Positions 5,831 through 53,005 of a DNA stretch of 64,000 bases are shown here, in pieces. Position 1 is the stretch's first letter, and each line of letters begins with the position of its first letter. Location of the stretch: contig CAWHFJ010000009.1 in assembly GCA_963828495.1 (NCBI GenBank), forward strand, positions 106,338 through 170,337, read 5' to 3'. The translations under genes were made by a program, and so were the position numbers. The DNA comes from Candidatus Omnitrophota bacterium. Lineage in GTDB: Bacteria > Omnitrophota > Gorgyraeia > Zapsychrales > Fredricksoniimonadaceae. The notes below the pieces were generated by a model. The model did not search any database. It was not told the origin of the DNA and was given only the letters and a program-made list of their open reading frames with translations.

Positions 5831-5972
5831 GGCGGGGCCTGGCTTGGCCTCGATATTAAGGTGCTCCTAATTGAAATGCGTTTGTCACAGCCTTAGCTCT
5901 TGGTGATTTACCTCGACTGCCCCTTGGGGCCGTCACCGTCCGCTCCTTAATATCGAGGCCAAGCCACCCGCC
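5831..5972 (+). repeat. family E palindromic repeat, copy 1
   Basis: A perfect 21-bp stem pairs GGCTTGGCCTCGATATTAAGG (5841..5861) with CCTTAATATCGAGGCCAAGCC (5945..5965), extended by GGCGGG/CCCGCC. The stem encloses an ~87-nt core that recurs at 46224..46310. Confidence 0.7.
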
Positions 5973-5998
5973 GCTTAATTTAGCCTTATGTTCTCGCT

Positions 5999-7297
5999 CT
6001 ACTCCATTTTATAAATCGTCAATCCCGATAACACTTTGGGATAGAAATAGGTGGTCTTAGGCGGCATACGCTCGTCGTTAAGCGCGATGGCCCGCAATTG
6101 CTTGACCGAAACGGGATTAAGAATAAATCCGGCCTCAGCGGCACCTTCATTCACAGCTCTCACGACTTCATCAGGATCTATAGAATAAACCGTATCATCG
6201 GTGGACACCCCTACTTGGTCTAAAATAAACGCCTTCAAAATAGCCGCATCTAAACTGCGATAGTCCCTGGAGCCTTCCTTGACCATCTTATCAATGAGCA
6301 TTTTATTCTTTAACCGCAGTAAAAACATGCCCTGCTTGTTATACAAACCAAAGGCATGCTCATTTTGGCCCGCGCGGGCCAATAAAACCATCCAATCTAT
6401 TTTATTCTTAACACGATCAATACGGAAATACTGTTCTAAAAGATTAACGCTGATGGGAAATTTTTTGACGATGCGGTGAATGGGGAATATCTGCAAATCC
6501 TTGGAGTCCATATTGGTAAAATAGGTCATCACATAATCGTAGGGTTCCTCACCCGTGGTCTTGGGAGCCTTCTTTAAAGCCTCCCGGCGGATTTGATTCG
6601 CCACCTCGAAACGATGATGCCCGTCACAGATAAATAAATTCTGGTTATCAACAACACGGATGATTTCCTGAATTTTATCCGGGTCTTCCAAGCGCCAGAT
6701 GGAGTGTTTGACTTTATCCTGGTCCACCGCTTCCAGATCAGGCTTCTGGTTGGCCAAATCTTTAAAGAATATCCGGTCGATTTTGCCGGCCTTATCCGCG
6801 TATCCGACAAAAATCGGGCTTAAGTTGCTTTTTAAGGCGCTCCACAGCGTGAACCGGTCGGTTTTAGCCAAGGCATGCGTGTGCTCGTGCGGTAAAGTGC
6901 GCACCCCCGAGTCTTCGGTTATTTTCAACAGCCCCAAAAAACCCGTACGGATATATTTTTCGCCTTGATATTTATAATCCTGTTTATAAAAATAAATACA
7001 GGGTTTTTCATCTTGTTTTAATATGCCTTTTTTTAGCCATTCCTCATATGTCTTCTTGGCCCGGATGTATTTATTGTCCTTGTCAGTGTCTTTAGGCGTG
7101 TCTTTGGTCAATTCCAGGCGGATAAAATTATACGGGGCCTGCTTATAATAAGCATCCTGCTGTTCCTTGGAGATAATATCATAGGGGGGACAGAAGACCT
7201 CTGAGAGGTTTTCGACTTTCTCCTTATTATAAAAAACCGCCGCGAATGGCTTAAGCGCTGACATGAACCATGCCCTTTCTTTATTTAAAATTAACAA
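5999..7297 (-). CDS. DUF1015 family protein
   Basis: Length of 432 aa and motifs such as FICDGHHR and YFYPK are typical of the DUF1015 family as I recall it. Confidence 0.75.
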   Translation of the reverse strand: MLILNKERAWFMSALKPFAAVFYNKEKVENLSEVFCPPYDIISKEQQDAYYKQAPYNFIRLELTKDTPKDTDKDNKYIRAKKTYEEWLKKGILKQDEKPCIYFYKQDYKYQGEKYIRTGFLGLLKITEDSGVRTLPHEHTHALAKTDRFTLWSALKSNLSPIFVGYADKAGKIDRIFFKDLANQKPDLEAVDQDKVKHSIWRLEDPDKIQEIIRVVDNQNLFICDGHHRFEVANQIRREALKKAPKTTGEEPYDYVMTYFTNMDSKDLQIFPIHRIVKKFPISVNLLEQYFRIDRVKNKIDWMVLLARAGQNEHAFGLYNKQGMFLLRLKNKMLIDKMVKEGSRDYRSLDAAILKAFILDQVGVSTDDTVYSIDPDEVVRAVNEGAAEAGFILNPVSVKQLRAIALNDERMPPKTTYFYPKVLSGLTIYKME

Positions 7298-8799: not shown

Positions 8800-10725
8800 C
8801 TATTTATCACTAGACGCTTTAAAATCAGCATCAATCACGTCGTCCTTGCCCTTGTCTTGCTTGGGCTCGGCAGATCCGCCCTGAGGCTGCTCGGGATTCG
8901 GCTGCTCTGCTTGGCCTCCACCGCCCGCTTGCGCCTGGTCTTTGGCGGCGCTGGCTTTGTACATTTCTTCCGCTAATTTATGGCTGACTTTCTGCAGACT
9001 TTCCATGCTGGACTTGATCTTGTCCTGATTCTTGTCCTTGATGGCATCTCGCAGAAGCGTTAATTCTTTTTCCACCGCTTCTTTTTCGCTCGCCGATACT
9101 TTGTCGCCATAATCTTTCAGGGATTTTTCCGTTGTATAAAGCAACGTATTGGCCTGGTTGAGAAGCTCCGCTTCCTCGCGGCGCTTCTTGTCCTCTTCGG
9201 CATATTTTTCCGCTTCCTTGACCATTTTTTCTATTTCCGCTTCCGACAGCTTGGTCTTGGCCGTGATCTGGATCTTTTGCTCTTTGCCCGTGGCCTTGTC
9301 TTTGGCGGTCACATGCACAATACCGTTAGCATCAATGTCAAAGGTCACCTCGATTTGCGGGATGCCGCGCGGTGCCGGCGGGATACCGACAAGGTCAAAA
9401 CGGCCTAATTCCGTATTATCATTGGCCATCTGACGCTCCCCTTGTAAAACCCGGATCGTCACCGCCGTTTGATTATCGTCGGCCGTTGAAAATATCTGGC
9501 TTTTCTTGGTGGGGATGGTCGTATTGCGGTCAATGAGTTTGGTAAATACCGAACCCATCGTTTCAATCCCCAAAGACAACGGTGTGACGTCGAGCAATAA
9601 AACTTCCTTGGCATCCCCGGTGATAATAGCCCCTTGCACCGCGGCCCCCAAAGCGACACATTCCATAGGGTCAATGCCGCCTTCAATTTTCTGGCCGACT
9701 TCCTTTTCCAAAAACTGCTGAACAATCGGCATACGGGTAGGCCCGCCGACTAAAACCACACGGTCGATCTTAACGTCCGCCCCTAATTTAGCGGAGGCAT
9801 CTTTAATCGCTTGACGCACCGGACCGCGGCAGCGGTCAATGAGAGGCGTAATAAGGCTCTCGAGTTTGGCGCGATCAATTTTCATTGTCAAATGTTTAGG
9901 GCCCGTGGCATCTGCTGTAATATACGGCAAATTCACTTCCGTTGACACCGTGCTGGAAAGCTCCACCTTGGCCTTTTCCGCGGCTTCGCGCAGACGCTGA
10001 AACGACATTTTGTCATTGCGTAAATCCACACCGGATTCTTTTTTAAATTCCGTGATGATATACTCAATCAAGGCATTGTCCATGTCCGTACCGCCTAATT
10101 GCGTATCGCCGGAGGTTGACAAAACTTCAAAGGTCGCGGCCTTAGAAGCCGTGTCCCAACCCATTTCCAAAATAGTCACATCGAGCGTCCCGCCGCCTAG
10201 ATCAAAAACCATGATCTTCTGCTCTTTGCCGGCTTTATCTAAACCATACGCCAGGCAAGCCGCGGTCGGCTCATTGATGATGCGCAACACTTTAAGGCCC
10301 GCGATTTCTCCCGCGTCCCGGGTCGCTTGACGCTGATTATCATTAAAATACGCCGGGACCGTGATCACAGCGCCGTCCACCGTCTCCCCTAAAAATTTCT
10401 CGGCATCGGATTTAATTTTTTGCAGAATGAATGACCCGACCTGCTGGGGCGTATACTCCTTGCCGAATACCTTGAATTTAAACTCCGTCCCCATTTTGCG
10501 TTTGGAGGCATAGATCGTCCCCTCCGAATTAATCGGCGCCTGACGACGGGCTGGTTCACCGACGAGCAATTGCCCGTCTTTGGTAAAAGCCACAAATGAC
10601 GGGAACGCTTTACCCGAGGCGATGCCTGCGCCTTCCGCCGATGGAATAATGACCGGACGGCCACCCTCCATAGCGGCTGCTGCTGAATTTGATGTGCCTA
10701 AATCGATTCCAATAACGCGTGCCAT
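8800..10725 (-). CDS. dnaK: molecular chaperone DnaK (Hsp70)
   Basis: Hsp70 signatures [21 protein letters not shown] and [10 protein letters not shown]. Length 641 aa. Confidence 0.97.
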
Positions 10726-14027: not shown

Positions 14028-14100
14028 GATGAATCATTCTACCACAATTTTCTTAACCTCCGGCCTTTTCTCTTCTTTTTTTATACGGGGTAAGGTCAAT

Positions 14101-14309
14101 TCTAGACGCGTGCTATTTGGCTTAAATTTGTTTCTAGAACATGCTTGTCTATTCGGCCATTGTGTTTTCTTCGAAGGTAGTAGAAGGCTGATTTGGCATG
14201 GTCCACCTTCGCCTAGATAGCGGTGGCAAATCAGCCTGGGCCCTAGCGAAGCCGCATCGCTGGATGCGGCGAGCGTGCCTGAAAGAATAAATTGAAGCCA
14301 AATAGCCTG
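14101..14309 (+). repeat. composite repeat locus: family D terminus fragment, a 12-bp inverted-repeat pair, and family A copy 1 (right end deleted)
   Basis: TCTAGACGCGTGC at 14101..14113 matches the D terminus. GCTATTTGGCTT (14112..14123) and AAGCCAAATAGC (14295..14306) are perfect inverted repeats bracketing family A copy 1 at 14147..14283. Confidence 0.7.
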
Positions 14310-14381: not shown

Positions 14382-16511
14382 TTAGTCTGTTTCGATAACT
14401 AAATCATCCCCTTGGGCATCAACGGTAATTTTCTGTCCTTCTTTGATTTCTCCCTGCAGCATGCGCAAAGCGATGGGGTCTTGCACCATGCGCTGAATGA
14501 CCCTCTTTAACGGACGGGCCCCGTAGACGGGGTCATAACCCTGACGGCCCAAAAGGTCCCGGGCTTTGTCCGTTGTCTTTAATTGAATGCCGCGGGCTTT
14601 CAAACGCTCGGCTAATACCCCTATTTGAATATCCACGACCTTCTTTAATTCTTTCATCCCCAAACGACGGAAAATCACGATTTCATCCACGCGATTTAAA
14701 AATTCAGGACGGAAGTGATGCCGCAAAGCATCCTGGATGCGATGATCATTTTCTTTTTGGTCCTCTGATACAGCGACATCCAAAGTACCGATATTGGAAG
14801 TCATAATGACAATGGTGTTTTTAAAATTCACCACTCTTCCCTGACTGTCAGTCAGGCGCCCGTCGTCCAACAACTGCAAAAGCACATTAAAAACATCCGT
14901 GTGCGCTTTTTCAATTTCATCAAAAAGCACTACCGCATAAGGTCTACGGCGTATGGCCTCGGTCAACTGCCCGCCTTCTTCGTAGCCGACATAGCCTGGC
15001 GGTGCTCCGATCAGACGCGCCACCGAGTGTTTCTCCATATACTCGCTCATGTCTATGCGCACCATGGCATTTTCATCATCAAATAAGAACCATGCCAACG
15101 ACTTGGCCAGTTCCGTTTTGCCCACACCCGTGGGGCCCACAAAAATAAAAGAGCCCGACGGCCGATGAGGGTCAGATAGCCCCGCGCGAGAACGGCGGAT
15201 ACAGGAGGCAATGGCGGCAATAGCATCATCTTGTCCCACCACACGCCCTCTTAAGGCATCTTCCATGTGGACTAATTTCTGCGTCTCGCTCTCCATCAAT
15301 TTAGACAAAGGGATTTTAGTCCACTTGGCCACAATCTCGGCGATGTCCTGGTCATCGACTTCTTCTTTGAGCATAGCGCCGTCTTTTTGCAGCTTAGCTA
15401 ACTCTTTATTTTTGCCTTCCAATTCTTTGTTAAGTCCGACGAGCGTCCCATAACGGATTTCCGCAACTGTATTCAGGTCACCTATTTTCTCAGCCTGGGC
15501 CTCTTCGATTTTCTTATCTTCCATCTGAGCTTTGAGTGCACGAATACGATCAATGACAACCTTTTCACCCTGCCAGCGCAGGCGCATAGCTTTATTCACT
15601 TCTTTCAGGCGGCCTAATTCCTCATCAATTTTCTTAAGCCTTTCACGGGAAGCCGGATCCGTTTCTTTTTTAAGCGCTTGCCGCTCAATCTCCAGACGGC
15701 GGATCTCGCGCTCATTCTGGTCAAGCTCCTGAGGCATACTGTCAATTTCGATGCGCAGCTTAGACGCCGCCTCATCGATCAAATCAATGGCTTTATCCGG
15801 CAGGAAACGCTCCGTGATATAACGCTGACTCATCATAGCCGCGGCGACGATCGCAGAATCCTGTATACGCACCCCATGATGGATTTCGTATTTTTCTTTT
15901 AACCCTCTTAAAATAGCAATAGTGTCCTCGACACTCGGTTCATTAACGATGACCTGAGCAAATCGCCTCTCTAACGCAGCGTCTTTTTCGATATATTGAC
16001 GGTATTCATCAAGAGTGGTCGCCCCGATACAACGCAAGCCCCCGCGGGCCAAAGCCGGCTTAAGAAGGTTGGAGGCATCTATCGAGCCTTCGGCACGTCC
16101 TGCGCCCACAATAGTATGCAACTCATCAATGAATAAAATAACGGCCCCGTTTTGGTCCTCCACTTCTTTTAAAACAGCTTTCAGGCGGTCTTCAAACTCG
16201 CCGCGGAACTTGGCGCCGGCCACCAAAGCACCCATATCTAAAACAATGATCCGCTTGTGTTTAAGCCCCTCCGGCACATCCTGAGAAAAAATGCGCTGGG
16301 CCAGCCCCTCAACGATGGCGGTCTTGCCGACCCCCGGCTCGCCGATCAAGACCGGATTATTTTTAGTGCGGCGTGAAAGCACCTGGATACAGCGGCGGAT
16401 TTCTTCATCGCGCCCGATAACCGGGTCTAATTTGCCTTTGCCGGCCAATTGGGTCAAGTCACGGCCATATTTTTCCAATGCCTGATGCTGCTCTTCGGAA
16501 TTTTGGTCCAT
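14382..16511 (-). CDS. clpB: AAA+ disaggregase ClpB lacking the N-terminal domain
   Basis: Two Walker A motifs ([16 protein letters not shown]) and a long middle coiled coil. The protein begins at ..[13 protein letters not shown], which is where the N-domain normally ends. An AGGAG RBS precedes the ATG at 16511. Confidence 0.93.
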
Positions 16512-16529
16512 ATTAACTCTCCTAAATTA

Positions 16530-16556
16530 TTAGCACTCTAAGCCTATAAGTGCTAA
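16530..16556. promoter_or_regulatory. CIRCE operator upstream of clpB
   Basis: TTAGCACTC-N9-AAGTGCTAA, 1 mismatch to consensus. It overlaps the last codons of the comEC ORF. Confidence 0.8.
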
Positions 16557-17678
16557 TATACCACAAATCTCTTGTTTGTCAAGCAGCTGACTAAATACGG
16601 CACGTCCTACATGAACTAGATTCCCGCTTTCGCGGGAATGACATTGTACCATACTTAATTGAATATACCCCAACGGCACCTGGGAAAACCAATAGGCTAC
16701 GACGACCATCAAATTAAAAACCACTTTCAAACATCCGGCCAAGACCCACGCTGTTGCGGGCATACACAACCCGGCCAGCGCTAAAGACAATCCTAAGGCG
16801 ACTGTTAAATCCAATAAAGGCACAATAAAAATATTGGCTATCAAAGCGACCGGCGTGATAGTGCCGAAATGCCATAATTGCAAAGGCGTAATCCCGATCC
16901 ACGCGGCCGTGGACACCGCAAACACAGATGCCAGCCACCTGGGGCAAAAGGACAGTGGCTTTTCTATAGGCCCGTACAAAATCACAATCGCAGCCACCGC
17001 AGCAAAAGAAAGTTGAAAACCCGTATCAAATAGATTACGCGCATCCATTAACAATAAAACCAACGCTGCCAAGGCCAAAGAATTTAACGAATCACTTTCA
17101 TATTCAAGGGCATGCGCGGCCAAGACGACCGACGCCATAAACGCCGCACGCATCACCGGGATTGAGCCGCCGGTCAAAATCGCAAAGATAAATAAAAGCA
17201 AAATACTGCCCCCCATTTGCAAGGAGCGGGGAATCCTTATCAATTTTAAAACGAAAAAAATCATGGCTGTCATCATGGCCATGTGCAGCCCCGCGATCAC
17301 TAAAATATGCCCGGTGCCGGTATGCCGAAAAACCATATTGATTTCTTTGGGGATATGGCCCCGGTCCCCTAACACGATGGCCGACATAGTCCCTGCTTCA
17401 TTGTCATTAAGATACTGATACAGCGAAGTCTTTAATTGCCCGCGCCAGCCCTCCAGAACATCGATACCCGGCGGATGGGCGACGTGGATCAGTGCCGCTC
17501 CCAGACAAAATAAACCTATATAAAGAGGCCACATTTTAGGACGGAACAAAAAGAACACCATTAACGCTGAAGATGTGATTAGCCAGAAAGCCAAGCCAAA
17601 CGGCAGAAAGTGCCCTATGAAAATACCTGATGACAAAACCACAACCAGCCAGCAGCAGGGTCGGTGTGTCATGTTCAT
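16530..17678 (-). CDS. comEC: ComEC/Rec2-family DNA internalisation channel (competence domain only)
   Basis: Polytopic membrane protein with FRHTGTGHILVIAGLHM. Start set at ATG 17678 (MNMTHRP), which forms an ATGA overlap with the comEA stop. Confidence 0.85.
   Translation of the reverse strand: MNMTHRPCCWLVVVLSSGIFIGHFLPFGLAFWLITSSALMVFFLFRPKMWPLYIGLFCLGAALIHVAHPPGIDVLEGWRGQLKTSLYQYLNDNEAGTMSAIVLGDRGHIPKEINMVFRHTGTGHILVIAGLHMAMMTAMIFFVLKLIRIPRSLQMGGSILLLFIFAILTGGSIPVMRAAFMASVVLAAHALEYESDSLNSLALAALVLLLMDARNLFDTGFQLSFAAVAAIVILYGPIEKPLSFCPRWLASVFAVSTAAWIGITPLQLWHFGTITPVALIANIFIVPLLDLTVALGLSLALAGLCMPATAWVLAGCLKVVFNLMVVVAYWFSQVPLGYIQLSMVQCHSRESGNLVHVGRAVFSQLLDKQEICGILALIGLEC
16555..16582 (-). 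promoter_or_regulatory. sigma70-type promoter of clpB
   Basis: On the minus strand TTGACA (16582..16577), a 16-nt spacer, then TATATT (16560..16555) running into CIRCE. It has the same CTTGACAAACA -35 context as the hrcA promoter. Confidence 0.65.
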
Positions 17679-24104: not shown

Positions 24105-24773
24105 TTAGGCATCCGGCGGCACAACAACCTCAAAACCTTCTGCCAGGCGCTGATAATAAACGCCTCCCCAGACAAAATAATTAACTCCGTCAGCCATCAC
24201 TATCTGATAATCCGGGGGGAGATAATCAACCACGGCACCAACGACAGGGCCAATAGTCACTAATTGATCCCCCTCTTGCTGATAAAAAACACCCTCGCTA
24301 TAAAAGTATGTTTGGCCATCTACCACGACCTCCTCTAAGTCATCCGGGACAACAATAGCAGGGCTTACAGGAATGTAGGTGACCCTCTCCTCATAATATT
24401 TATACAAATCTCTATCGTAATTACGCTGTGGGTACTGCCCACGATGTTGGGGCTCAACGCGTACCGGCCCTGCTACATTCATAGGCACTTCATGCTGAGG
24501 CGGCCCTACCCGATGCTGGGGCGGCTCTACCCGATGCTGGGGCTCAACGCGTACCGGCCCTGCTACATTCATAGGCGCTTCGTGCTGGGGTAGCTGCACA
24601 CGACGTTGGGGCTCAACGCGTACCGGCGGTACTACATTCATATGGACTTGATGTGGTAGGGGCTGCATGCCTGCATTTTCCCAAGAGGCATAAGCCGGTA
24701 CTGATGCGCCTGCGAGAAGGGCCGTAAAGAACAGTGTGCTAAACACCGTGTTGATATTTTTTATGGGTTTCAT
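24105..24773 (-). CDS. secreted protein with tandem Pro/Gln/His-rich repeats and a Tyr-rich C-terminal domain
   Basis: Signal peptide MKPIKNINTVFSTLFFTALLAGASVPAYA (start at ATG 24773 with a GGGAGG RBS). The repeat MNVAGPVRVEPQHR occurs about three times. No family recognised. Confidence 0.7.
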   Translation of the reverse strand: MKPIKNINTVFSTLFFTALLAGASVPAYASWENAGMQPLPHQVHMNVVPPVRVEPQRRVQLPQHEAPMNVAGPVRVEPQHRVEPPQHRVGPPQHEVPMNVAGPVRVEPQHRGQYPQRNYDRDLYKYYEERVTYIPVSPAIVVPDDLEEVVVDGQTYFYSEGVFYQQEGDQLVTIGPVVGAVVDYLPPDYQIVMADGVNYFVWGGVYYQRLAEGFEVVVPPDA

Positions 24774-24846
24774 GGTTGCCTCCCTGCCCCGCTGGGCTCT
24801 TCCCATCCTTCACCCATTTAGACACTAAAAACCCCTTGAAAGTTCC

Positions 24847-26704
24847 CTATTTTCTTAAATAGATCATCAACAGCACAATAGCCGCCGGAGTCATCCCGGA
24901 AATCCGGTTAGCCTGACCTAACGTAATGGGATTAAAACGGTTAAGCTTCTCTGTGATTTCTTTGGAAAGTCCGGGGATCCTGTTAAAATCAAAGCCCGGC
25001 GGTATCCGGATATATTCAATATGCTTAAACTTTTCCACTTCCTTGTGTTGACGGCGGATAAAACCTTCATACTTAATTTCATATTCGACCTGAGCGATCA
25101 CCTGCCGGCCTAATTTTTCCAGCGTCCCGTCAAAGCCCGCAATCATATCATAAGTAATTTCCGGCCTTTTGAGCAAATCATAGAGTGAAATCGACTGCTT
25201 CAGAGGCGCACTGTCTACCTTTTTAAGAATGTCATCCAGTAATGTCCCCGGAGGGATCTTTGTTAAACGTAAATGTTCTATTTCCTTCTCAATGGCCGCG
25301 TATTTGGCCGTAACTTGATCATAATCTTGGGGTAACAAAAGTCCCAGGTGATGCCCGTATTGCGCCAGACGTTTGTCTGCATTGTCCTCGCGCACGATCA
25401 GGCGATACTCCACCCTCGATGTAAACATGCGATAAGGCTCCTCGGTCCCGCGAGTGACCAAATCATCAATCAACACTCCGATATAAGATTCATGGCGGCC
25501 TAAAATAAGCGGCTCTTTGTCTTGAACTTGCAAAGCGGCATTGATCCCGGCGACCAGGCCCTGGGCAGCGGCTTCTTCATAACCGGTTGTCCCGTTAATC
25601 TGGCCTGCTAAAAACAAGCCCTTGATTTTCTTGGTTTCCAATGTCGGCTTTAATTCCGTCGCCGGCACCACCCCATGCTCAATAGAATAGCCGGGACGGA
25701 CAATCACGGCTTGCCCAAGTCCGGGGATGGAGTGGACCATCTCTTCCTGCACATGGGCCGGAAGACCGGTGGAGATACCGTTAGGATAATACTCAAAAGT
25801 ATCCAACCCTTCGGGCTCCAGAAAAACATGATGCGTAGGCTTGTCCGCGAATTTCTTTAATTTATCTTCAATGGAGGGACAATACCGTACGCCGGTGGCC
25901 TTAATCTGACCGGAATACATCGGGGAGAGATGAAAATTCGCCCGGATAATGTCATGGGTGCGTTGGGTCGTATGCGTAATATGGCAAGATAAAAGTTTTC
26001 GTTCTTTGGGAATAAAAGGCGTTCTAAAAGAAAACGGCACAATAGGATCGTCAGACGCCTGGTACTCCATACCCGTAAAATCAATGGTACGTCCATCCAG
26101 GCGCGGGGGTGTGCCGGTCTTAAACATCATGATCTGGAAGCCCAGATCGCGGATACAGCGGGCCAAGCGTATGGATGCCTGTTCATTGATACGGCCGCCG
26201 GAGGTAATCTGTGGCTCCGATATGGATGCGCCCGTCTAAAAAAGTGCCTGTGGCGATAATCACCGTCGGGGCTTCTACATGCAAACCACTAACGGTCTTA
26301 ATACCCTTAACTTGTCCCCCGGCCACCAGAAGATCACAGACTTCATCTTCAATAACAGTCAAATGCGGCTGATTTAAGACCACATGTTGCATATACAAAC
26401 GGTATTGCTTGCGGTCTGCCTGGCAGCGGGACGAACGCACCGCCTGGCCTTTGGAGGCATTTAATTGCCTAAATTGGATCCCTGTGCGGTCGGCGGCCAG
26501 ACCCATTTCCCCGCCTAAAGCATCGATCTCTTTGACTAACTGGCCTTTGCCGACACCTCCGATGGCGGGATTACAGCTCATCTGTCCGATGGTGTCACGG
26601 CTCAAGGTCACCATGGCCGTCGCAAGGCCCATGCGGGCTGGCGCTAAAGCCGCCTCAATGCCGGCATGTCCGGCGCCTATAACGATGCAATCAAATGAAT
26701 TCAT
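24847..26704 (-). pseudogene. mnmG: tRNA uridine 5-carboxymethylaminomethyl modification enzyme MnmG, split by one frameshift (ORFs 26183..26704 and 24847..26166)
   Basis: The N-terminal fragment carries the FAD motif VIGAGHAGIEAA. The C-terminal fragment carries KTGTPPRLD. The shifted frame reads through the junction as ITSGGRINEQASIRLARCIRDLGF. Confidence 0.9.
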
Positions 26705-26744
26705 AAGGGAACTAAAATAGCGCGAATAACGACGATTGTCAACA

Positions 26745-26955
26745 TGAACGCGTTAGTACTAGAACGGGATAAATTTATTCTTTTCGCTCCTGTCATCGTT
26801 TTCTTAACGCCAAAAATTCTTATGCTGGTTCGGTGCTCAAACAAGTTTGACCATTTAAGACCGAAGTCTTAAATACCCTCACCATCATAAGTTTTTTGGC
26901 TAAAAACGATCAGTCGCTTCAAAGAACAAATTTATCCCGTACAATGCACGCGTCT
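26745..26955 (+). repeat. family D long imperfect palindrome, copy 1
   Basis: The two arms GGGATAAATTTATTCTTT.. and ..AAAGAACAAATTTATCCC pair over ~85 bp around the tip hairpin TTTAAGAC-CGAA-GTCTTAAA (26854..26873). Homologous to 52757..53005. Confidence 0.7.
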
Positions 26956-27113
26956 ATTCGGTCATTGTGTTTTCTTCGAAGGTAGTAGAAGGCTGATTTG
27001 GCATGGTCCACCTTCGCCTAGATGGCGGTGGCAAATCAGCCTGGAGACTAGCGAAGCCGCATCGCTGGATGCGGCGAGCGTGCCTGAGAAGGAAATACAA
27101 TGGCCGAATAGAC
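26952..27113 (+). repeat. family A terminal-inverted-repeat element, copy 2 (full length, 162 nt)
   Basis: TIRs are GTCTATTCGGTCATTGT (26952..26968) and ACAATGGCCGAATAGAC (27097..27113). The interior is nearly identical to 14147..14283 and to the reverse complement of 52556..52717. Confidence 0.75.
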
Positions 27114-27155
27114 ATCCATGAAGAAATTAATTGAAGCCAAATAGCCTGCGGGAAC

Positions 27156-28484
27156 TTATTTGATCCAACCTGCGACGGTCTGCCATAATAAATAGACATT
27201 TAATACAATAATCACGGCCGTCACTATCCATGCGAGCACTTGAAGCCATGCGGAATTCACAAAGCTTCCCATTTTCTTCTTGTCCGATGTGAACACAACC
27301 AGCGGGACTACCGCGAAACCCAATTGAAGGGATAAAATAACCTGACTAAAAATCAGCAAATCCCCTGTCCCCTTTTCCCCATACATCGAAGCCACAATCA
27401 CCGCAGGGACAATCGCGATTGATCTCGTTAACAGGCGCCTGACCCACGGACGCAGGCGGATATTCAAAAAGCCCTCCATGACGATTTGGCCTGCTAATGT
27501 CCCTGTCAGCGTCGAGTTTTGCCCCGATGCTAAAAGGGCAATCGCAAATACAATGCTGGCCATGGACGCGCCTAAAACCGGCGTTAATAAATTATACGCA
27601 TCATGGATGTCGGCCACATCCTGGTGACCGGTACCGTGAAAGGCCGCAGCACTCAGGATCAAGATCGCGGCATTAATAAAAAACGCACAAAACAAAGCGA
27701 AAGCCGAGTCTATGCCTGCGAAATGCACGGCCATCTTTTTGCCTTCTTCATTGCGTTCATACGCCCTGGTTTGCACAATACTCGAATGCAAATACAAATT
27801 ATGCGGCATGACCGTGGCCCCTAAAATGCCAACCGCAATATATAACATGCCGGGATTAGTGACGATCTCGGGTTTAGGCAATAAATTAGCAAAAAACAGC
27901 GGTAAGGAAGGATTGGCAATCATCATCTCATAGGCAAAACTCCCTGCGATTAATAATATTAAACCCGCTACCAAAGATTCAATAACGCGGAATCCCTTAT
28001 ACTGCAAAAATAAAATGACAAGCACATCCATCGCGGTTAGCAAAACACCTATTACAAGAGGAAGATGAAAAAGCAGATTCAAGGCAATGGCAGAGCCGAT
28101 GACCTCAGCCAAATCACACGCGGCAATAGCGATCTCACATCCCACCCACAACATGAAAGATACCGGTTGACTATAATGGTCCCGGCAAGCCTGGGCTAAA
28201 TCACGGTCGGTGACAATACCCAGCTTTAACGCCAAATGTTGCAGTAAAATGGCGATAAAATTGGAAAACAATATCACGGACAGTAAAATATAGCCGTATT
28301 TAGCCCCACCGGCTAAATCCGTCGCCCAGTTGCCCGGATCCATGTAACCGACCGCCACCATGAGTCCGGGCCCCAAAAAAGCCAGCATCTTACGCCCCCA
28401 ACTGGCATGGGCATCCACACGGATACTCGAATGGACTTCCGATAGGCTTACTGTTTTGCTCTCCTGCCGCCAGCCTAATCTCAT
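27156..28484 (-). CDS. mntH: Nramp-family divalent metal (Mn2+/Fe2+) transporter
   Basis: Motif GPGLMVAVGYMDPGNWATDL, 11-12 TM segments, length 442 aa. Confidence 0.92.
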   Translation of the reverse strand: MRLGWRQESKTVSLSEVHSSIRVDAHASWGRKMLAFLGPGLMVAVGYMDPGNWATDLAGGAKYGYILLSVILFSNFIAILLQHLALKLGIVTDRDLAQACRDHYSQPVSFMLWVGCEIAIAACDLAEVIGSAIALNLLFHLPLVIGVLLTAMDVLVILFLQYKGFRVIESLVAGLILLIAGSFAYEMMIANPSLPLFFANLLPKPEIVTNPGMLYIAVGILGATVMPHNLYLHSSIVQTRAYERNEEGKKMAVHFAGIDSAFALFCAFFINAAILILSAAAFHGTGHQDVADIHDAYNLLTPVLGASMASIVFAIALLASGQNSTLTGTLAGQIVMEGFLNIRLRPWVRRLLTRSIAIVPAVIVASMYGEKGTGDLLIFSQVILSLQLGFAVVPLVVFTSDKKKMGSFVNSAWLQVLAWIVTAVIIVLNVYLLWQTVAGWIK

Positions 28485-28492
28485 ATATTCTC

Positions 28493-29854
28493 CTAGGAAT
28501 ATCCTTTCGAGTATCCAATATCAATAATCCCTCTCCTAACCAAATCTTCTATCGAATCTTTCATGAACTGCATCCCTTGGTCTTTCCCCCTTAATATGTA
28601 ATCAGGAATTTGTTTCCAGTCGCCGTCACGGATCATTTTCCTTCCGGTATCATTCATCAAGAACACTTCTACAGCCGGCACCAAGCCTGCCTCTCCGACA
28701 ATGCGAGGGAAAAGTTCTTGAACAATAATGCCATTTAACACCAGGGAAAGCCGGGTCAAAATATGTTTCTGGGTCTCCGCAGGGAAAAAGGATACCACCC
28801 GATCCAAAACCTGAGAAATGCTGGCCGAATGAATGGTGGTTAAAACTAACATCCCTGACTCGGCCGCAGTCAACACCAGCTCCAGAGTTTCTACGTCTAG
28901 AGTTTCGCCTATAATCAACACATCAGGATTTTGTCTTAACGCATTACGGATAGCTGATGCGTACGAAATGGTGTCGCGGCCCAATTCTCTTTGTTTAATA
29001 ATGCATCCTCTTTGTTCTTGAATATATTCGATGGGGTCTTCAATGCTGATGATGACACCGTTAATAAGTTTACCTAAATAACTTACGAGTGAAGCCAGTG
29101 TCGTTGTTTTCCCTGATCCCGTCCGACCGGCAATAACAATGAGCCCTCTATGGCTATCTCTCATCAAGCGTTCTGTAACGCCGGGAAGCCCTAATTGGGA
29201 AGGGGTGGGAATTTTTGCATTCACAATGCGACAAATAGCCTCTACCCTACCCTGCTGGACATGTATATTAAACCTTAATCTTTTCTCTTTATAAGTAAGG
29301 ATAAAATTTATATCTTTAGACTTCATAAACTTGGCATAACTATCGTCATCCAAGAGATTCAGCAATAAATTTTTCACCGTGTATTCATCTAAAACTCTCC
29401 CTACATTTTTCAATTCTCCCATCGTCTTTACAATAATGGGGTGCCCCGCCATAAAATGGACATCCATAACATTTTGGAGATCGACGCTATCCAGAAGAGC
29501 ATAAATATTAATCTCGTGTAAAAAAGTTATTAATTTCTCTTTGTCCTGTTCTTTGATATCCTTTATCTGGGTACCCACAAGGTACTGCCTGGAGCCTGTT
29601 TTATCAATTTGGAGCCTAACAACGGATGCCGTAAAAGATATCTTCTCATTATCTGAAACATAGCAACTGATCCTGAGGGTGGAATTCAATTTAAATTCCT
29701 TATTGTCATAAAAGCCAAGTCCTCTGGCTGAGATATCAAAAGCTTCTGTGGCCACAGGAGTACCATAACGCTCATCCCCCAGATATTCCTCATACTGAAT
29801 GGTATTTTTATACTTAAGGCGTTGGTCTTTCCTTTGATTAGATTTTGTCTGCAT
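28493..29854 (-). CDS. PilZ domain fused to a PilT/PilU-type hexameric ATPase
   Basis: N-terminal PilZ motifs RKDQR and DISARG. PilT N-domain. Walker A GRTGSGKTTT, Asp box SIEDPIEY, Walker B DVLIIGE, His box LTTIHS. Confidence 0.85.
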   Translation of the reverse strand: MQTKSNQRKDQRLKYKNTIQYEEYLGDERYGTPVATEAFDISARGLGFYDNKEFKLNSTLRISCYVSDNEKISFTASVVRLQIDKTGSRQYLVGTQIKDIKEQDKEKLITFLHEINIYALLDSVDLQNVMDVHFMAGHPIIVKTMGELKNVGRVLDEYTVKNLLLNLLDDDSYAKFMKSKDINFILTYKEKRLRFNIHVQQGRVEAICRIVNAKIPTPSQLGLPGVTERLMRDSHRGLIVIAGRTGSGKTTTLASLVSYLGKLINGVIISIEDPIEYIQEQRGCIIKQRELGRDTISYASAIRNALRQNPDVLIIGETLDVETLELVLTAAESGMLVLTTIHSASISQVLDRVVSFFPAETQKHILTRLSLVLNGIIVQELFPRIVGEAGLVPAVEVFLMNDTGRKMIRDGDWKQIPDYILRGKDQGMQFMKDSIEDLVRRGIIDIGYSKGYS

Positions 29855-40768: not shown

Positions 40769-41074
40769 ATGGGAGGAAAACTTTTACCTATATTCAAAGA
40801 ACCGTCTACCCTGATAAAACTCGTCTGTCTTCAAACAGCTGACACGCAGTCCTTGGCGCAAGACCCGCGTTTCCAAAAAATCCTGCAGGATGCTGAAATC
40901 CAACAAGAAATCAACGGCCATGATATGGCCAAATTGATGAGCAATCCCAAAATAATGGCCTTGACCCAACAGATCATGACCGACCCTGAAATGCTCAAAA
41001 AAGTTATGGCCGTCTGGCAAAACCAGCCAGAAATCCCCCTCACCGTAACAAGCGCCGCTGGATCTCGCTCTTGA
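40769..41074 (+). CDS. hypothetical protein with STI1/DP-like helical repeats; possibly the C-terminal part of the disrupted cvpA-like gene (same frame as 40346)
   Basis: DPRFQKILQDAEIQQ..NPKIMALTQQIMTDPEMLKKVM pattern. It converges on and overlaps the 3' end of the response regulator gene. Confidence 0.4.
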   Translation: MGGKLLPIFKEPSTLIKLVCLQTADTQSLAQDPRFQKILQDAEIQQEINGHDMAKLMSNPKIMALTQQIMTDPEMLKKVMAVWQNQPEIPLTVTSAAGSRS

Positions 41075-41429
41075 TATCCTCCGGAGAACAAGGCTTCGCC
41101 AGAATCCCATTCATGCCTGAGTCCCAACATTCCAGCATCATGCTCGAGACTTGTCCGCGCATATACGCCGTTATAGCAACGATCGGTGTTTCTTTGTCCA
41201 TCTTGCGGATCATCTGGGAGGTTTTATAACCGTCCAGCTTAGGCATACGGATATCCATGAGGATGAGATCAAATTTTTCTGCCTGTATTTTCTCGAGAGC
41301 CTGTTGCCCATCCGCACAAAGCACAAGCCTGCATCCCATTTCTCCGATGACGATCTCCATAAAATATCGGCTAGCTTCATCATCTTCCACATACAAAATT
41401 CTTTTGTCTGCTAACGATGTGTCCACCAT
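41040..41429 (-). CDS. single-domain response regulator (REC only)
   Basis: Acidic pocket VEDDE, phospho-acceptor LILMDIRMP, and conserved T (AITAY) and K (AKP). Confidence 0.88.
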   Translation of the reverse strand: MVDTSLADKRILYVEDDEASRYFMEIVIGEMGCRLVLCADGQQALEKIQAEKFDLILMDIRMPKLDGYKTSQMIRKMDKETPIVAITAYMRGQVSSMMLECWDSGMNGILAKPCSPEDIKSEIQRRLLR

Positions 41430-41443
41430 ATTTTCCCCCTACT

Positions 41444-41827
41444 TTAAGATTTTTCTATCCACGATATAATTTCTTTTTCAAATACTTTCACATCCCTTCC
41501 CTTGGCGATAAAACCGTTCATCCCAACCAAAAAACATTTTTCCTTAACATCCGCCAAGACATGGGCTGTCACCGCGACAATCAAAACGGTCCTGTCAATA
41601 TCCTGCCTGATAATCTGTGTCGCTGTTACCCCATCCATGACCGGCATCCTCAGATCCATAAAAATAATATTGAATTTGCCCCTCTTGACTTTTTCCACGG
41701 CCTCCTGACCATTATACGCCAACTCAAAACTACAACCAATGTTTTCCAACATCAGCTGCATGTAATATTGATTAGCTCTATCATCTTCTACCAATAAAAC
41801 TCTCTTGTCTTTGAGCGTTTGATCCAT
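41444..41827 (-). CDS. single-domain response regulator (REC only)
   Basis: VEDDR, IIFMDLRMP, AVTAH and AKG motifs. Confidence 0.88.
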   Translation of the reverse strand: MDQTLKDKRVLLVEDDRANQYYMQLMLENIGCSFELAYNGQEAVEKVKRGKFNIIFMDLRMPVMDGVTATQIIRQDIDRTVLIVAVTAHVLADVKEKCFLVGMNGFIAKGRDVKVFEKEIISWIEKS

Positions 41828-41837
41828 TCTGACGCCC

Positions 41838-44642
41838 CTAAATTTTATCCAAATTAAAAGTCACTATAAATTCACTGCCTTTGTCGATTTGGGATAGTAC
41901 ACGGATCTGCCCACCCATTAAAACAGCCAATTTCTGCGCAATGTGCAACCCCAGACCCACTCCATCGTATATTTGCCCTTTATAAAACTCATGAAATCTG
42001 GTGAAGGGATCAAAAATATAAGGCAGCTGTGCCTCAGGTATGCCAATACCGGTATCTTTCACTGAAACTCTCACACGATATTGATCTTTGTTAGGCTGAT
42101 GGTCATCAATTCCAGCGGTCACTTGGATCCGGCCCTTTAGTGTGTATTTGAAAGCATTGCTTAACAAATTATCGATGATCTGCCGCACCCTAAGAACATC
42201 CCCTTTTAACCGTGGGATTGTTCCTTCAAAACTTAAGGATACCGTCACATCTTTTTTCCCTAACCCGACCTGTGCTGTCTCCACGGCCTCTGCCAACAGC
42301 TGATGAAGATCCAATTCTTCGGACTTAAATTCTGCCTTACCTAAATCTATTTTAGAAGCATTAAGAATATCTTCAACCAGGGCCAAAAGATATTTTCCCC
42401 GTTCATTGATAAAATCGACCCCTTTGCGGTACTTTTCCTCCATATCCACAGACTTTAATATATGGGAAATCCCGAGAATCGCATTTAAGGGGGTGCGCAA
42501 ATCATGCGAAATATTCGTTAAAAATTCCGTCTTATATCTATTGGCCGTCTCCGCCTCTTCTTTAGCTATTCTCAGCGCTTCTTCGATTCTTTTGCGCCCG
42601 CTTAACTCTTGTTGAGATTTTTCGTAAAGCTGCGCATTGACCAGGGCCACTGAAACTTGACTCGCCAGGGTTTCAAGAAATTCGCTTTGCTGATCGAAAT
42701 CCCGCATAGTGTCCGACGCCAATCCCATCACGCCGATGATTTCGTCCCCGTTGGTCAACGGCAATGCCACAAAGGATTTTATACCGGCCCGTTTGCATTC
42801 CTGCCAAGTACAACGGCCGTCCGTAAAAATATCGCGGGAATACAGGGGTTTCTTTTCTCGAACCGCCGATCCGCACAGGCATTCGCCTACGCGATGTTCC
42901 GGAATAACACCGAAACGCCGGCCTAAATCAACTGGCAGCGATTCCTTGAGGACCAGTCGCTCTCCGTCGCGGAGAAACAAAAAAGTCAGATCGGCATCAA
43001 CAGCACCGCGTATCCCGGCCAACGCGGTTTTTATGGTCTTATCCAACGACAAGCTTGTGTTCACCGTACGCCCCAAAATATTAAGCGCAGAGAGCTCCTC
43101 TCCCCTCTGAATGATCATTCTTTCAGCGCGCTTACTCTCAGTAATATCGATAATGATCCCTATGATCGCTTGCTCTCCTTTCAAATTAATCAATTCTGCC
43201 ACAATGAATACATCCCGAATCTCCCCGGACTTCCTGCGAAATTGTGTTTCCAGTCTCTCTACGCGTCCCTTTTCTGAAAGCATCTTGACCATCATGACGC
43301 GATGTCCCGGGTAAACCCACATATTTAATGTTACAAGATCGTTTCCGACTATCTCCTGGCGCGTATGTCCGACAAAAATGTCAAAAAAAGCATCATTAAC
43401 CTCCAGAATCTTCCCGTCTGCAAAACGCGTTATAGCAATACTAATCGGCGCATGATGAAATACACTCGCAAACCGCATCTCACTCTCTTTCAATGTCTCT
43501 TCCGCCTTCTTGCGTTCGGTGATTTCGCGCACCATAGCAATCACACCGATAATGTTTCCACTGTTATCCCGATGCGGCGTATAAATCCCCTGGGCCCAAC
43601 CTTTTTTTTCTGTCCCGGGGACACGATATTCAAAATCGGAAGAAATAACCGTCTGGCCGAGCATCGCCCGGGCCAATAACTTATCAATGCCTTGCTCCAC
43701 AATGTGCGGGAATAGATTGGTGGCTTTTTTCCCAAGAACTTGTGCTGCCGGCATCCCTGTCATCTGCTCCATCGCTGAGTTCCAAACTTTATAACATAAT
43801 TGAGTGTCGTAAACAATAATACCCTCGCCGGCGGCCCGGATGACTTCGTCAGCGAAATGTTGGGCCTCCCTGATGCCCTCCTCCATCCGCCTGTGCTCGG
43901 TGATGTCATGCATAACAGCAACCGCTCCCAAAACCCGTCCGTCTTTGCCCTTAACCGGCCCTGCGTTGGCCATAATATAACGTTTGGGCTGCCCCTTAGC
44001 GGCAATCACCATACTGATGTTCTGCATCGTTTCACCGCGGAAAGCCCTCGCCAAAGGAACGGTGCTAATATCCATGGGTGTCGTCCCGTCCTCTTGATAA
44101 AGATCATAATAGCTGGCCCATTGTGTCTGCGGGATTTTCCTGGGATCCAATCCATGCCAATCGCGAGCCTTCCGGTTAAAAAGAACAAGCTCTCCATCTT
44201 CATTGCATGCCACGAGTCCGGCGTCTATATGCTCGAATATAGTTTCCAAAAAAGTCCACTGAAAATCGAAAGCTATCTGTGCCTGCTTGTGCTTAGTGAT
44301 GTCCTTAAGGCCCATCAGGACCATCCGCTCACCCACTACATCTTCATCAATAATTCTGGCATTAAGCAACAGTGTCCTCTCGCCAATACCCGGGAATTGA
44401 CCACAGAGCTCAAAATTGTCAATTGAGGTCTTTTGAGTCCATACGGCTTCTAACATCTTGCGCAGCGCCGGAATATCCCACTGATGCTGCCCTAAATCGT
44501 AAAGCAGTTCACCTTCGGTTTGCTCCGGAAGAATTTTAAATTGGCAATAAAAAGACTTGTTGGCTGTCTTGACGCAGAGACTTTTATCAAGAACTATCAT
44601 CGGGTCAGGAACCGCTTCAATGATACTTTTGATCGAATGCAT
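41838..44642 (-). CDS. cytoplasmic multi-PAS, GAF hybrid-type sensor histidine kinase
   Basis: About four PAS/PAC units and a GAF domain. H-box ISHDLRTPLNAI and ATPase boxes (LSNAFKYT, DTGIGI, GVGLGL). Confidence 0.9.
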   Translation of the reverse strand: MHSIKSIIEAVPDPMIVLDKSLCVKTANKSFYCQFKILPEQTEGELLYDLGQHQWDIPALRKMLEAVWTQKTSIDNFELCGQFPGIGERTLLLNARIIDEDVVGERMVLMGLKDITKHKQAQIAFDFQWTFLETIFEHIDAGLVACNEDGELVLFNRKARDWHGLDPRKIPQTQWASYYDLYQEDGTTPMDISTVPLARAFRGETMQNISMVIAAKGQPKRYIMANAGPVKGKDGRVLGAVAVMHDITEHRRMEEGIREAQHFADEVIRAAGEGIIVYDTQLCYKVWNSAMEQMTGMPAAQVLGKKATNLFPHIVEQGIDKLLARAMLGQTVISSDFEYRVPGTEKKGWAQGIYTPHRDNSGNIIGVIAMVREITERKKAEETLKESEMRFASVFHHAPISIAITRFADGKILEVNDAFFDIFVGHTRQEIVGNDLVTLNMWVYPGHRVMMVKMLSEKGRVERLETQFRRKSGEIRDVFIVAELINLKGEQAIIGIIIDITESKRAERMIIQRGEELSALNILGRTVNTSLSLDKTIKTALAGIRGAVDADLTFLFLRDGERLVLKESLPVDLGRRFGVIPEHRVGECLCGSAVREKKPLYSRDIFTDGRCTWQECKRAGIKSFVALPLTNGDEIIGVMGLASDTMRDFDQQSEFLETLASQVSVALVNAQLYEKSQQELSGRKRIEEALRIAKEEAETANRYKTEFLTNISHDLRTPLNAILGISHILKSVDMEEKYRKGVDFINERGKYLLALVEDILNASKIDLGKAEFKSEELDLHQLLAEAVETAQVGLGKKDVTVSLSFEGTIPRLKGDVLRVRQIIDNLLSNAFKYTLKGRIQVTAGIDDHQPNKDQYRVRVSVKDTGIGIPEAQLPYIFDPFTRFHEFYKGQIYDGVGLGLHIAQKLAVLMGGQIRVLSQIDKGSEFIVTFNLDKI

Positions 44643-44781
44643 TAATGTCCCTGCCTTTCGTATTCAAAGGGCCCCAGGAATGCCGCCAGGAAACAGACGA
44701 TTTTAGAATTATAGTACATCCCGATGTATTTAAACACTTTTCTTTTCGAAGGTGGCTTTCACAAGAAGCGGACCAGGAAGG

Positions 44782-46173: not shown

Positions 46174-46199
46174 AACGCTCCAATTCCCCTAATTCCCAA

Positions 46200-46370
46200 C
46201 GGGGCCTGTCTCGGCTTCGATGTTAAGGTGCTCCTGATTGAAATGCGTACGTCACAGCCTTAGCTCTTGGTGGTTTACCTCAACCAGCCCTCGGGGCCGT
46301 CACCGTCCGCCCCATATTCCCTATTGCTTGCTCGGCAACTCTAACTTCAATGTCCGAGCCCACCCGCCGC
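46200..46370 (+). repeat. family E palindromic repeat, copy 2
   Basis: The core at 46224..46310 is about 85-90 percent identical to 5857..5943 by eye. The 5' arm is homologous to copy 1. The 3' arm is interrupted by ~34 extra nt. Confidence 0.7.
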
Positions 46371-46405
46371 AATTCTTAGAGAATTAAGTGTGTGTCACGT
46401 TAATT

Positions 46406-46466
46406 AAAAACGAACAGTCGCTTCAAAGAACAAATTTATCCCTTACAATGAACGTATGCGTCTAGA
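46406..46466 (+). repeat. family D right-arm fragment, copy 3
   Basis: AAAAACGAACAGTCGCTTCAAAGAACAAATTTATCCCTTACAATG..GCGTCTAGA matches 26903..26955. Confidence 0.6.
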
Positions 46467-46493
46467 GCTGAAAAGCTATTATCATAATAATTT

Positions 46494-52504: not shown

Positions 52505-52555
52505 CTTTGTCTTCCCTTCGCAAGCACGCCCATCGAGATGAAAGCTATTGCCTGT

Positions 52556-52717
52556 GTCTATTCGGCCATTGTATTTCCTTCTCAGGCACGCTCGCCTCGT
52601 CCAGCGACTCGGCTTCGCTAGTCTCCAGGCTGATTTGCCACCGTCATCTAGGCGAAGGTGGACCATGCCAAATCAGCCTTCTACTACCTTCGAAGAAAAC
52701 ACAATGGCCGAATAGAC
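52556..52717 (-). repeat. family A terminal-inverted-repeat element, copy 3 (full length, inverted orientation)
   Basis: GTCTATTCGGCCATTGT (52556..52572) and ACAATGGCCGAATAGAC (52701..52717) form a perfect 17-bp TIR. The interior is the reverse complement of copy 2 with a few substitutions. Confidence 0.75.
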
Positions 52718-52756
52718 AGACACATTAATGTGCCTCACACATAATAGCTTTTCATT

Positions 52757-53005
52757 TCTAGACGCGTGCATCATTGTAAGTGATAAATTTGTTCTTTTTG
52801 CGACTGTAGTTTTTAGCCAAAAAACTTATGCTGGTGAGGGTATTTAAGACTTCAGTCTTAAATGGTCAAACTTGTTTGAGCCTTACAGTTCTAGAGAGCT
52901 TTAAGGCGAGTTGTTTGACCACCGAACCAGCATAAGAATTTTTGGCGTTAAAAAAACGATTCCAGGAGCAAAAAGAATAAATTTATCACTTACAATGCGT
53001 GCGTG
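52757..53005 (-). repeat. family D long imperfect palindrome, copy 2 (inverted orientation, ~40-nt internal insertion)
   Basis: Starts TCTAGACGCGTGC and ends ..TACAATGCGTGCGTG. Tip hairpin TTTAAGAC-TTCA-GTCTTAAA. It abuts the era stop codon. Confidence 0.7.

Follow-up and report, generated by a model that had tools for sequence, protein, structure and literature searches.

The window analysed here is a 64,000-nt stretch of a Candidatus Omnitrophota genome (contig CAWHFJ010000009.1, positions 106,338 to 170,337), in which short repeat modules form mosaics in four intergenic spacers. Omnitrophota are nanobacteria that have not been cultured and whose genomes are gene-dense. The window is gene-dense too; every sizeable gene lies on the minus strand, and the GC skew is negative over the whole 64 kb. 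Such strict co-orientation of genes across positions 1-64000 is unusual. The genes flanking the modules are syntenic housekeeping genes (Era, nth, ClpB, MnmG), and the homologues of Era and Nramp bear the source names Candidatus Omnitrophota or Omnitrophica. The window has no tRNA gene, and a scan of its whole length against Rfam 15 returned no family at the gathering score.

The mosaics are composed of lineage-specific, non-coding, hairpin-forming interspersed repeats, nested in Russian-doll fashion in the four spacers. The modules are family A; family D, a multi-layer hairpin with 35-nt arms; D', which has the D interior with alternative outer arms GCTATTTGGCTTCAATTTG (D and D' form one size class of 200-230 nt); and the hairpins E (about 150 nt), K (about 140 nt) and H (about 47 nt). 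The original prediction, made from the letters of the window, had described the loci as the same modules nested in one another and had likened them to bacterial interspersed mosaic elements (BIMEs). This description is supported: mosaics in the style of BIMEs and of neisserial intergenic mosaic elements (NIMEs) are the best analogy, and all the listed motifs and adjacencies were located again. Its main omission concerns A and D, whose structure is conserved and strand-specific and which occur across many Omnitrophota, without the target-site duplication expected of ordinary transposable elements of the miniature inverted-repeat type (MITEs). The modules are under structural constraint, have a polarity, are nested and turn over, with no duplication at their sites.

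Structure, polarity and distribution of families A and D

The members of family A are about 160 nt long (155-163 nt, and longer where a loop carries an insertion) and share one predicted fold. Both ends pair over 26 bp (P1) in a rod of 26-31 bp that leads to a three-way junction; the rod is prolonged by an invariant 2x2 tandem G.A loop and five more pairs up to this junction. Hairpin P2 has 11 bp, a conserved 7-nt bulge GCAUGGU and a variable tip, and hairpin P3 has 8 bp and a loop of GCUG or GCAG. A covariance model recognised exactly three copies in the window, A1 to A3 (Table 1), of which A1 (14147-14307 in the model) is degenerate, with its 3' arm replaced. In other genomes, small fragments related to the E2 copy of family E interrupt or replace the tips of P2 or P3.

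We evaluated covariation in 35 non-redundant copies over 56 pairs, using 500 shuffles and slid-partner controls. Altogether, 97% of the pair cells were paired and 25 of the 56 pairs were altered on both sides; none of the 500 shuffles reached any of the measures, and slid partners gave 35-46% paired cells and two to seven such pairs. The pair cells hold 113 G.U combinations versus 11 of A.C. At an outer P1 site the combinations UC/GA (13 copies), GA/GA (13) and GA/UC (seven) were observed, and UC/UC, the sole combination that does not pair, was observed in no copy. The fold is also strand-specific: the predicted energy of A2 is -96.8 kcal/mol (z -10.6) in the sense strand versus -71.4 kcal/mol in the antisense strand, and the covariance model scores A at 126-178 bits in sense versus 15-46 bits in antisense. 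The junction strands are the most conserved part of A, and the termini are the least conserved, the outer three to four P1 pairs being the most variable.

The predicted D hairpin shows compensatory changes in 33 of its 68 pairs. In each of the nine independent tandem D-A units, the predicted fold of D is 10-23 kcal/mol more stable on the strand antisense to A. A D or D' arm is present up to 330 nt 5' of A in 22 of the 48 non-redundant copies; four of these have a further arm on the 3' side, where A is nested between arms, and in no copy is the 3' arm the only one. The order is constant, 5'-D-A-3' in the sense of A.

Family A matches no Rfam 15 family even at E <= 10 (stretch 26700-27200), Y RNA, 6S RNA, retron msr, self-cleaving ribozymes and HEARO/IS605-orfB RNAs being among the families covered. 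A metagenome scan with an invariant 19-mer of A, GGCGAGCGTGCCTGAGAAG, returned 76 loci, about 50 of which are true homologues, found in metagenomes of peat, bog, permafrost and groundwater; the remainder are chance coding matches in high-GC contigs. In the genome collection, a strict 23-base terminal pattern matched only three metagenome-assembled genomes (MAGs), all of them Omnitrophota. The number of copies per genome appears to be in the tens, as extrapolated from three copies in 64 kb.

Relative to flanking genes, A lies in the same orientation in 15 cases, in the opposite orientation in 15 and between convergent genes in four, with no case between divergent genes. Solo copies are sense in 10 cases and antisense in 11, by which a preference for the mRNA-sense orientation was rejected; since the orientation towards genes is random, a cis role of the A sense strand within host mRNAs is unlikely. 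No protein is consistently adjacent across the approximately 50 A loci. A conserved partner gene was likewise rejected, the large clusters of open reading frames (ORFs) being spurious read-throughs of A itself.

Several other identities of A were considered and set aside. Its antisense strand holds a 53-codon ORF from terminus to terminus (26952-27120 on the minus strand, 52553-52717 on the plus strand), with ATG or GTG at the boundary as its start and a stop at the TAG in the terminal repeat; a coding role was rejected on the grounds that variants show length differences of 1, 4 and 8 nt and that none of 5.8 billion predicted proteins shares words with this ORF. A likeness to human Y1 RNA, a Y RNA (CGAAGGUAGU, GACUAG), was discarded, as there is no Rfam match and the pairing partners differ. 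A self-cleaving ribozyme was rejected too; the CUGAGAA motif is without the hammerhead G8, and Rfam matches are absent. A pseudoknot between the P2 bulge (UGGUC) and the junction (GACUA) is unsupported, being broken in copies that carry GCCCUAG. As to a phage or plasmid origin, blastn gave no match, and two viral-contig matches fall inside coding sequence and are chance.

Nested modules and the junction motif in the window

The coordinates of the modules are collected in Table 1.

Table 1. Repeat modules of the window, ordered by position
Module	Position	Strand	Remarks
E1	5831-5974		hairpin of about 145 nt with arms of about 34 nt
H right-arm remnant, TTCTAGACGCGTGC	14097-14113	+	junction motif of the original prediction; abuts the D' left arm
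D' left arm, GCTATTTGGCTTAAATTTGTTTCT	14112-14135	+
A1	14147-14282	+	without the 3' P1 strand; nested between D' arms; 126 bits
D' right arm, AGAATAAATTGAAGCCAAATAGC	14283-14306	-
D	26756-26946	-	multi-layer hairpin of about 190 nt; best fold on the minus strand, opposite to A2
Junction GCACGCGTCTA	26945-26955	+	GTCTA common to the A2 terminus
A2	26952-27113	+	complete; 176.9 bits
Linker of CATGGATGTC type and one D' arm	27114-27145	-	D' arm is the orthologue of the left arm in a full D' of contig L091
E2	46199-46370		right arm interrupted by a small hairpin fragment ATATTCCCTATTGCTTGCTCGGCAAC
D fragment	46405-46454	+	A-proximal arm only
H	46458-46504		complete, empty
H right arm, AATAGCTTTCATCTCGATGGGCGTGC (minus strand)	52524-52549	-	3' of A3
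A3	52556-52717	-	complete; nested as H(K-remnant(A)); 168 bits
K left-arm remnant (with CACATTAATGTG) and H left arm ending GCACGCGTCTAGA	52718-52769	-
D	52772-52997	+	complete, 226 nt, 35-nt arms; best fold on the plus strand, opposite to A3

The sequence GCACGCGTCTAGA, formerly regarded as a junction shared by the loci, is the outer arm of the hairpin module H (consensus GCGTCTAGAGCTGAAAAGCTATTAT / ATAATAGCTTTTCAGCTCTAGACGC), and the other hairpin modules (K, A, D/D' and E) are nested in H or abut it. The extended motif TCTAGACGCGTGC matches perfectly on the plus strand at 14101-14113 and 52757-52769 and with two mismatches on the minus strand at 26946-26958 and 46454-46466. With up to two mismatches allowed, the four matches compare with 0.57 expected, and one of 100 shuffles reaches four; taken alone, the significance of the motif is borderline. 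All four matches, however, are embedded in longer repeats that are clearly non-random (none of 100 shuffles).

As a universal joint between modules, GCACGCGTCTA(GA) does not hold, being the basal arm of H, and the motif was not shared once more copies were sampled, an outcome that the original prediction had itself named as refuting. Exact GCGTCTAGA is limited to the closest lineage, i.e., the window and three relatives (L026, L033 and L043), and the remaining A copies have a 5' flank that follows T-R-Y-G-Y only loosely.

The individual adjacencies were confirmed. At the A3 locus, the left (52740-52769) and right H arms bracket the K remnant and A3, with D alongside, and the 39-nt spacer containing CACATTAATGTG lies at 52718-52756. 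A2 does start inside the motif, at GCACGCGTCTA/TTCGG, and this junction equals the A3 arrangement minus 44 nt between two GTCTA direct repeats. Around A1, the 12-bp inverted repeat GCTATTTGGCTT is present, with exact copies at 14112 and 14295; these are not an independent repeat but the arm tips of the D-related element D', and belong to longer arms of about 24-29 nt. The 12-mer recurs after A2 at 27134, as had been noted. Another exact GCTATTTGGCTT, at 47197-47208 inside a FolC-like coding region, is probably a chance match unrelated to the D' arms. E2 and the D fragment are adjacent within 46199-46454, and the ATATTCCCTATTGCTTGCTCGGCAAC fragment in the E2 right arm is also found inside A loops of other genomes.

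Some features of neighbouring genes were recorded at these loci. The FolC-like ORF takes its stop codon (GAGCTGAAAA) from one H arm (46494-46504), which overlaps it at the 3' end; the encoded C-terminus is not the one seen in a relative (L084). Directly downstream of the A2/D locus, mnmG/gidA is broken into two ORFs within 24847-26704, namely 26183-26704 (residues 1-167 of the GIDA profile) and 24847-26166 (residue 178 to the end), and the closest relative (L090/L091) has it intact as a single 618-aa gene; the split may reflect a frameshift, a pseudogene or an assembly error. Further along, a DUF6515 gene (24105-24806) holds three imperfect tandem repeats of 69-90 nt at 24425-24673.

Turnover of modules in orthologous spacers

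We compared the loci with syntenic pieces from relatives at approximately 91% identity (L084, L091) and 78% identity (L085-L088), and with further syntenic pieces at 70-80% nucleotide identity (L013, L028, L034, L043, L052, L061, L076, L079). The insertion polymorphism that the original prediction had proposed to look for was found: orthologous spacers hold different modules in genomes that are 77-91% identical. For example, the Era-nth spacer contains D and H(K(A3)) in the window, one D arm with other modules and E in L084, a full D' in L087, and a terminator-like hairpin of 82-88 nt in L085 and L086. This last hairpin (L085 10925-11012, L086 10925-11006) has a 25-bp stem, AAATAGGGGGACAGCGCCCTATTTT...AAAATAGGGCGCTGTCCCCTATTT, with flanking A/T tracts and looks like a bidirectional terminator; the two spacers differ by a 6-nt CTATTT tandem unit.

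Other spacers vary similarly. In the Nramp-gidA spacer, L091, the second relative with a full D', has that element together with D and lacks A; the window retains D and the orthologous D' arm, with A2 in the position of the D' interior. L028, L034 and L061 carry a copy of A downstream of LacI, at a place taken in the window by a PilZ/T2SSE ATPase gene (28493-29854) that occurs in the window only. The different A subfamilies at this site in L028 and L034 speak for repeated hits at hot spots and against vertical conservation. In L052 and L079, A replaces window positions 41004-44781; in L013 a copy lies downstream of ComEC; and L076 has D alone in a spacer that measures only 12 nt in the window.

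Newer modules occupy either the apex or the base of hairpins that were already there. In L084 (approximately 17296-17433), a 138-nt K hairpin is inserted cleanly and exactly at the apex of an H that is empty in the window, and about 88 nt with three small hairpins of the form ATTCCCGC-N-GCGGGAAT are inserted at the equivalent of window position ~57259. Some junctions fall on microhomologies of 5-6 nt (GTCTA, CATTGT), as in L033, in which the common hexamer CATTGT joins the 5' end of one A copy to a D arm.

Additional variation was seen around these sites. The LacI-Nramp interval is a hot spot of gene gain and loss that coincides with repeat modules; besides the window-specific gene, it is a 148-nt spacer with a small hairpin in L091 (95% identical), includes a Fur gene in L092, and contains a D' arm, A and a Fur gene in L028. 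A hairpin of the type GTCATTCCCGCGAAAGCGGGAATCTAG at approximately 16615-16641 on the minus strand, similar to the dRS3 repeat of Neisseria, is polymorphic in L084, and one to three hairpins of this type stand elsewhere in relatives (L084 ~6539-6626, L076 ~9210-9240, L091 ~9921); they are a further mobile family of small hairpins. Nearby, the gene of a ClpB-like protein of 709 aa without the usual N-terminal domain is preceded by a sigma-70-type promoter TTGACA-N17-TATATT (within 16511-16600), with identical hexamers in L013 (5490-5530), where one A copy abuts the -35 box.

Possible origins of the modules

On balance, the modules are probably non-autonomous selfish repeats with fast turnover, in the style of BIMEs, NIMEs and REPINs (paired repetitive extragenic palindromic, or REP, sequences), for which the folded single strand is the form under selection. 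We infer that they are mobilised in trans, and infer likewise the nature of the intermediate. The enzyme that copies the modules would have its gene elsewhere in the genome and would recognise a folded single strand, either single-stranded DNA (ssDNA) or RNA, instead of duplex terminal repeats; candidates are a HUH enzyme of the type of the REP-associated tyrosine transposases (RAYTs), an IS110-type recombinase or a reverse transcriptase (RT). The elements would integrate into existing hairpins or recombine at them, as hairpins may be the only permissive targets in these gene-dense genomes, so that the junction motif would be a module arm reused repeatedly as a landing or recombination point. 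The mosaic would grow through nesting and be trimmed by microhomology deletions.

Known palindromic repeats offer partial precedents. REP and REPIN hairpins form in ssDNA or mRNA and have compensatory changes in their stems; a REPIN consists of two inverted REPs, each of 20-40 nt, with conserved ends and a variable spacer (PMC3116915), and REPINs are mobilised by RAYT transposases (PMC3116915, PMC3337134). The modules described here share with BIMEs and REPINs the extragenic, non-coding, hairpin-forming nature with compensatory stem changes (found in A and D), the units of opposite polarity in a fixed order, and the absence of target-site duplication; a single-copy mobilising enzyme encoded elsewhere in the genome may be a further shared feature. 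The tetranucleotide GTAG has a role in REPs, and A carries GTAG just 5' of its P2 hairpin (GGTAGTAGA). In contrast to REPs, A (160 nt) and D (225 nt) are branched and several times larger; the conserved part of A is its interior junction, with the termini least conserved, whereas REPINs have conserved ends and a variable spacer; and the copy number, extrapolated as above, appears to be tens per genome and not hundreds.

The modules resemble NIMEs and Correia elements as intergenic mosaics of short repeat modules (PMC2649163, PMC2229807). With Correia elements they have in common a length of 100-160 bp, inverted ends of about 26 bp, a conserved core and outward promoter-like hexamers at the ends. 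Unlike A, Correia elements show a duplication of their TA target and conservation of their termini, and the strand-specific fold and three-way junction of A are not features of Correia repeat enclosed elements. The Neisseria dRS3 repeat has the form ATTCCC-N8-GGGAAT, which the GTCATTCCCGCGAAAGCGGGAATCTAG hairpin of the window resembles; however, the modules are not bracketed by such hairpins as in NIMEs. Among autonomous insertion sequences (ISs), IS1397 and ISKpn1 target REP loops, and the IS110/IS1111 family targets REP-like palindromes, the IS110 family leaving no duplication. The insertion of K in H is similar in being an integration at the apex of a pre-existing palindrome, but those elements are autonomous and carry a transposase, whereas the modules are ORF-less and no such IS occurs in the available sequence. 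Because REP/REPIN, Correia and NIME each fail a defining feature (unit size and conserved part, duplication and termini, and dRS3 bracketing, respectively), we place the modules in the same general kind of interspersed palindromic mosaics as a separate variant.

Several points weigh against mobile selfish repeats of this sort. No mobilising enzyme was found by the domain search of the window, and no autonomous master element with matching ends in approximately 790 kb of related sequence. As the original prediction had stated, no ORF of the window has a transposase, integrase or RT domain; RAYTs (Y1 HUH transposases) are absent from it, no integron attC site with R''/L''-L'/R' boxes and GTTRRRY is visible, and the missing RT, together with the lack of a conserved neighbour protein, also argues against a retron. 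No excision or transposition intermediate was observed. Clean insertions involve only K and the small hairpins, and all differences in A between relatives are replacements. The D-A association is partly ascertained, most loci having been collected with an A-specific probe, and loci fetched by protein show D or D' without A (L084, L087, L091). HUH-type ssDNA elements are usually biased in strand relative to replication, and no such bias is seen for A, whose orientation towards the uniformly co-oriented genes is even. As to IS200/IS605 elements, A agrees in having no duplication, but its ends are inverted repeats and D and A are opposite in polarity. Finally, the invariant junction strands and tandem G.A loops fit a functional RNA at least equally well.

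In the strongest alternative, A would be a gene, present in multiple copies, for a new structured small RNA that acts in trans, with D possibly being another, divergent RNA gene; its A-proximal arm would act as a promoter, and nesting and turnover would be secondary to duplication of the RNA gene. By its strong covariation, conserved G.U wobbles and tandem G.A loops, A is statistically like a genuine structured RNA, its G.A loop and junction strands being invariant and its helices and termini variable, and a random orientation towards host genes would fit an independent transcription unit. The promoter scan yielded a single weak 9/12 match, TTCAAA-16-TACAAT, in the A-proximal arm of D, facing A2 and 6 nt before its first base; a TACAAT-like hexamer is retained in other D arms, and TATAAT stands 5-7 nt upstream of A in L002 and L011. 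However, the scanner found no promoter at A1 or A3, and solo A copies have no consistent upstream promoter; with the weak match in one D arm alone, a promoter of its own was rejected for A. Over half of the A copies are without D, and no terminator follows A. Furthermore, truncated, chimeric and interrupted copies are frequent, and presence varies among close relatives, even to different subfamilies at one site. We consider an RNA gene unlikely.

A host-useful role in cis is less likely still. The modules would be elements within mRNAs, namely stabilisers of 3' or 5' ends, RNase III or RNase E sites or unconventional terminators, and D-A would form an orientation-independent cassette, in which reading from either side would finish on an element folded in sense. 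On each strand it is indeed the sense element that is transcribed last; the modules begin right after stop codons and upstream of the next promoter (TTGACA-17-TATTTT, 26742-26714); and two relatives have a plain terminator-like hairpin in the same Era-nth spacer. A precedent exists in Correia elements, which are RNase III substrates and promoter donors (PMC2649163). This role is at odds with solo A copies being antisense to flanking genes as often as sense, with hairpins that no U-tracts follow, and with close relatives that lack modules at the same sites.

Ordinary MITEs mobilised by a DDE transposase, similar to Correia or ERIC elements and accumulated by chance in a few permissive spacers, are improbable. 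The modules do have MITE-like traits: they have terminal inverted repeats of 26 bp in A and 35 bp in D, measure 160-230 bp, are ORF-less and multi-copy, and show insertion polymorphism. A target-site duplication, however, is absent from A. The longest common substring of the two A flanks averages 3.09 versus 3.17 in permutations (p = 0.74, 43 copies), and TGCG/TGCACG on both sides of some A copies, rejected as a duplication by the same permutation, reflects a loose preference for certain flanks. Conservation in A is lowest at the outermost bases and highest in the interior, the mismatches in A are strand-asymmetric, and the order and polarity of D-A are fixed. Neither an IS with matching ends nor an A or D arm pair enclosing an ORF occurs in the approximately 790 kb of related sequence.

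That the loci are assembly artefacts, i.e., collapsed or chimeric repeats, can be practically dismissed: short-read contigs (L082, L083, L094) do terminate inside A, as expected of a genuine repeat, but independent contigs from another assembly span two of the four loci colinearly (L081 over A2/D at 99.8% identity, L093 over A3/H/D at 99.5%), so that these two are real, and homologous elements occur in dozens of unrelated assemblies.

Literature searches turned up no account of repeat families or structured RNAs in Omnitrophota. The modules are the fastest-changing part of otherwise syntenic genomes and coincide with points of gene gain and loss; as they break short-read assemblies, they matter for MAG quality and strain typing. 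Tentatively, and with less confidence than we attach to selfish repeats in general, A and D may be categorically new, either as a structure-dependent mobile element without target duplication or as an RNA class specific to Omnitrophota. In the former case, as a mobile element or RNA system of an undescribed kind, they would form a divergently polarised pair of structured single strands, in which a 160-nt three-way junction with three tandem G.A motifs is accompanied by a multi-layer hairpin of 225 nt and which propagates without target duplication through integration at the apices or bases of other hairpins. The alignment of 35 sequences and the covariance model make the choice between a mobile element and an RNA testable on metatranscriptomes and complete genomes. 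Since A behaves as a mobile repeat, covaries in the manner of a functional RNA and falls outside the definition of a MITE, it is a candidate for a new structure-dependent mechanism of mobilisation or a new class of RNA.

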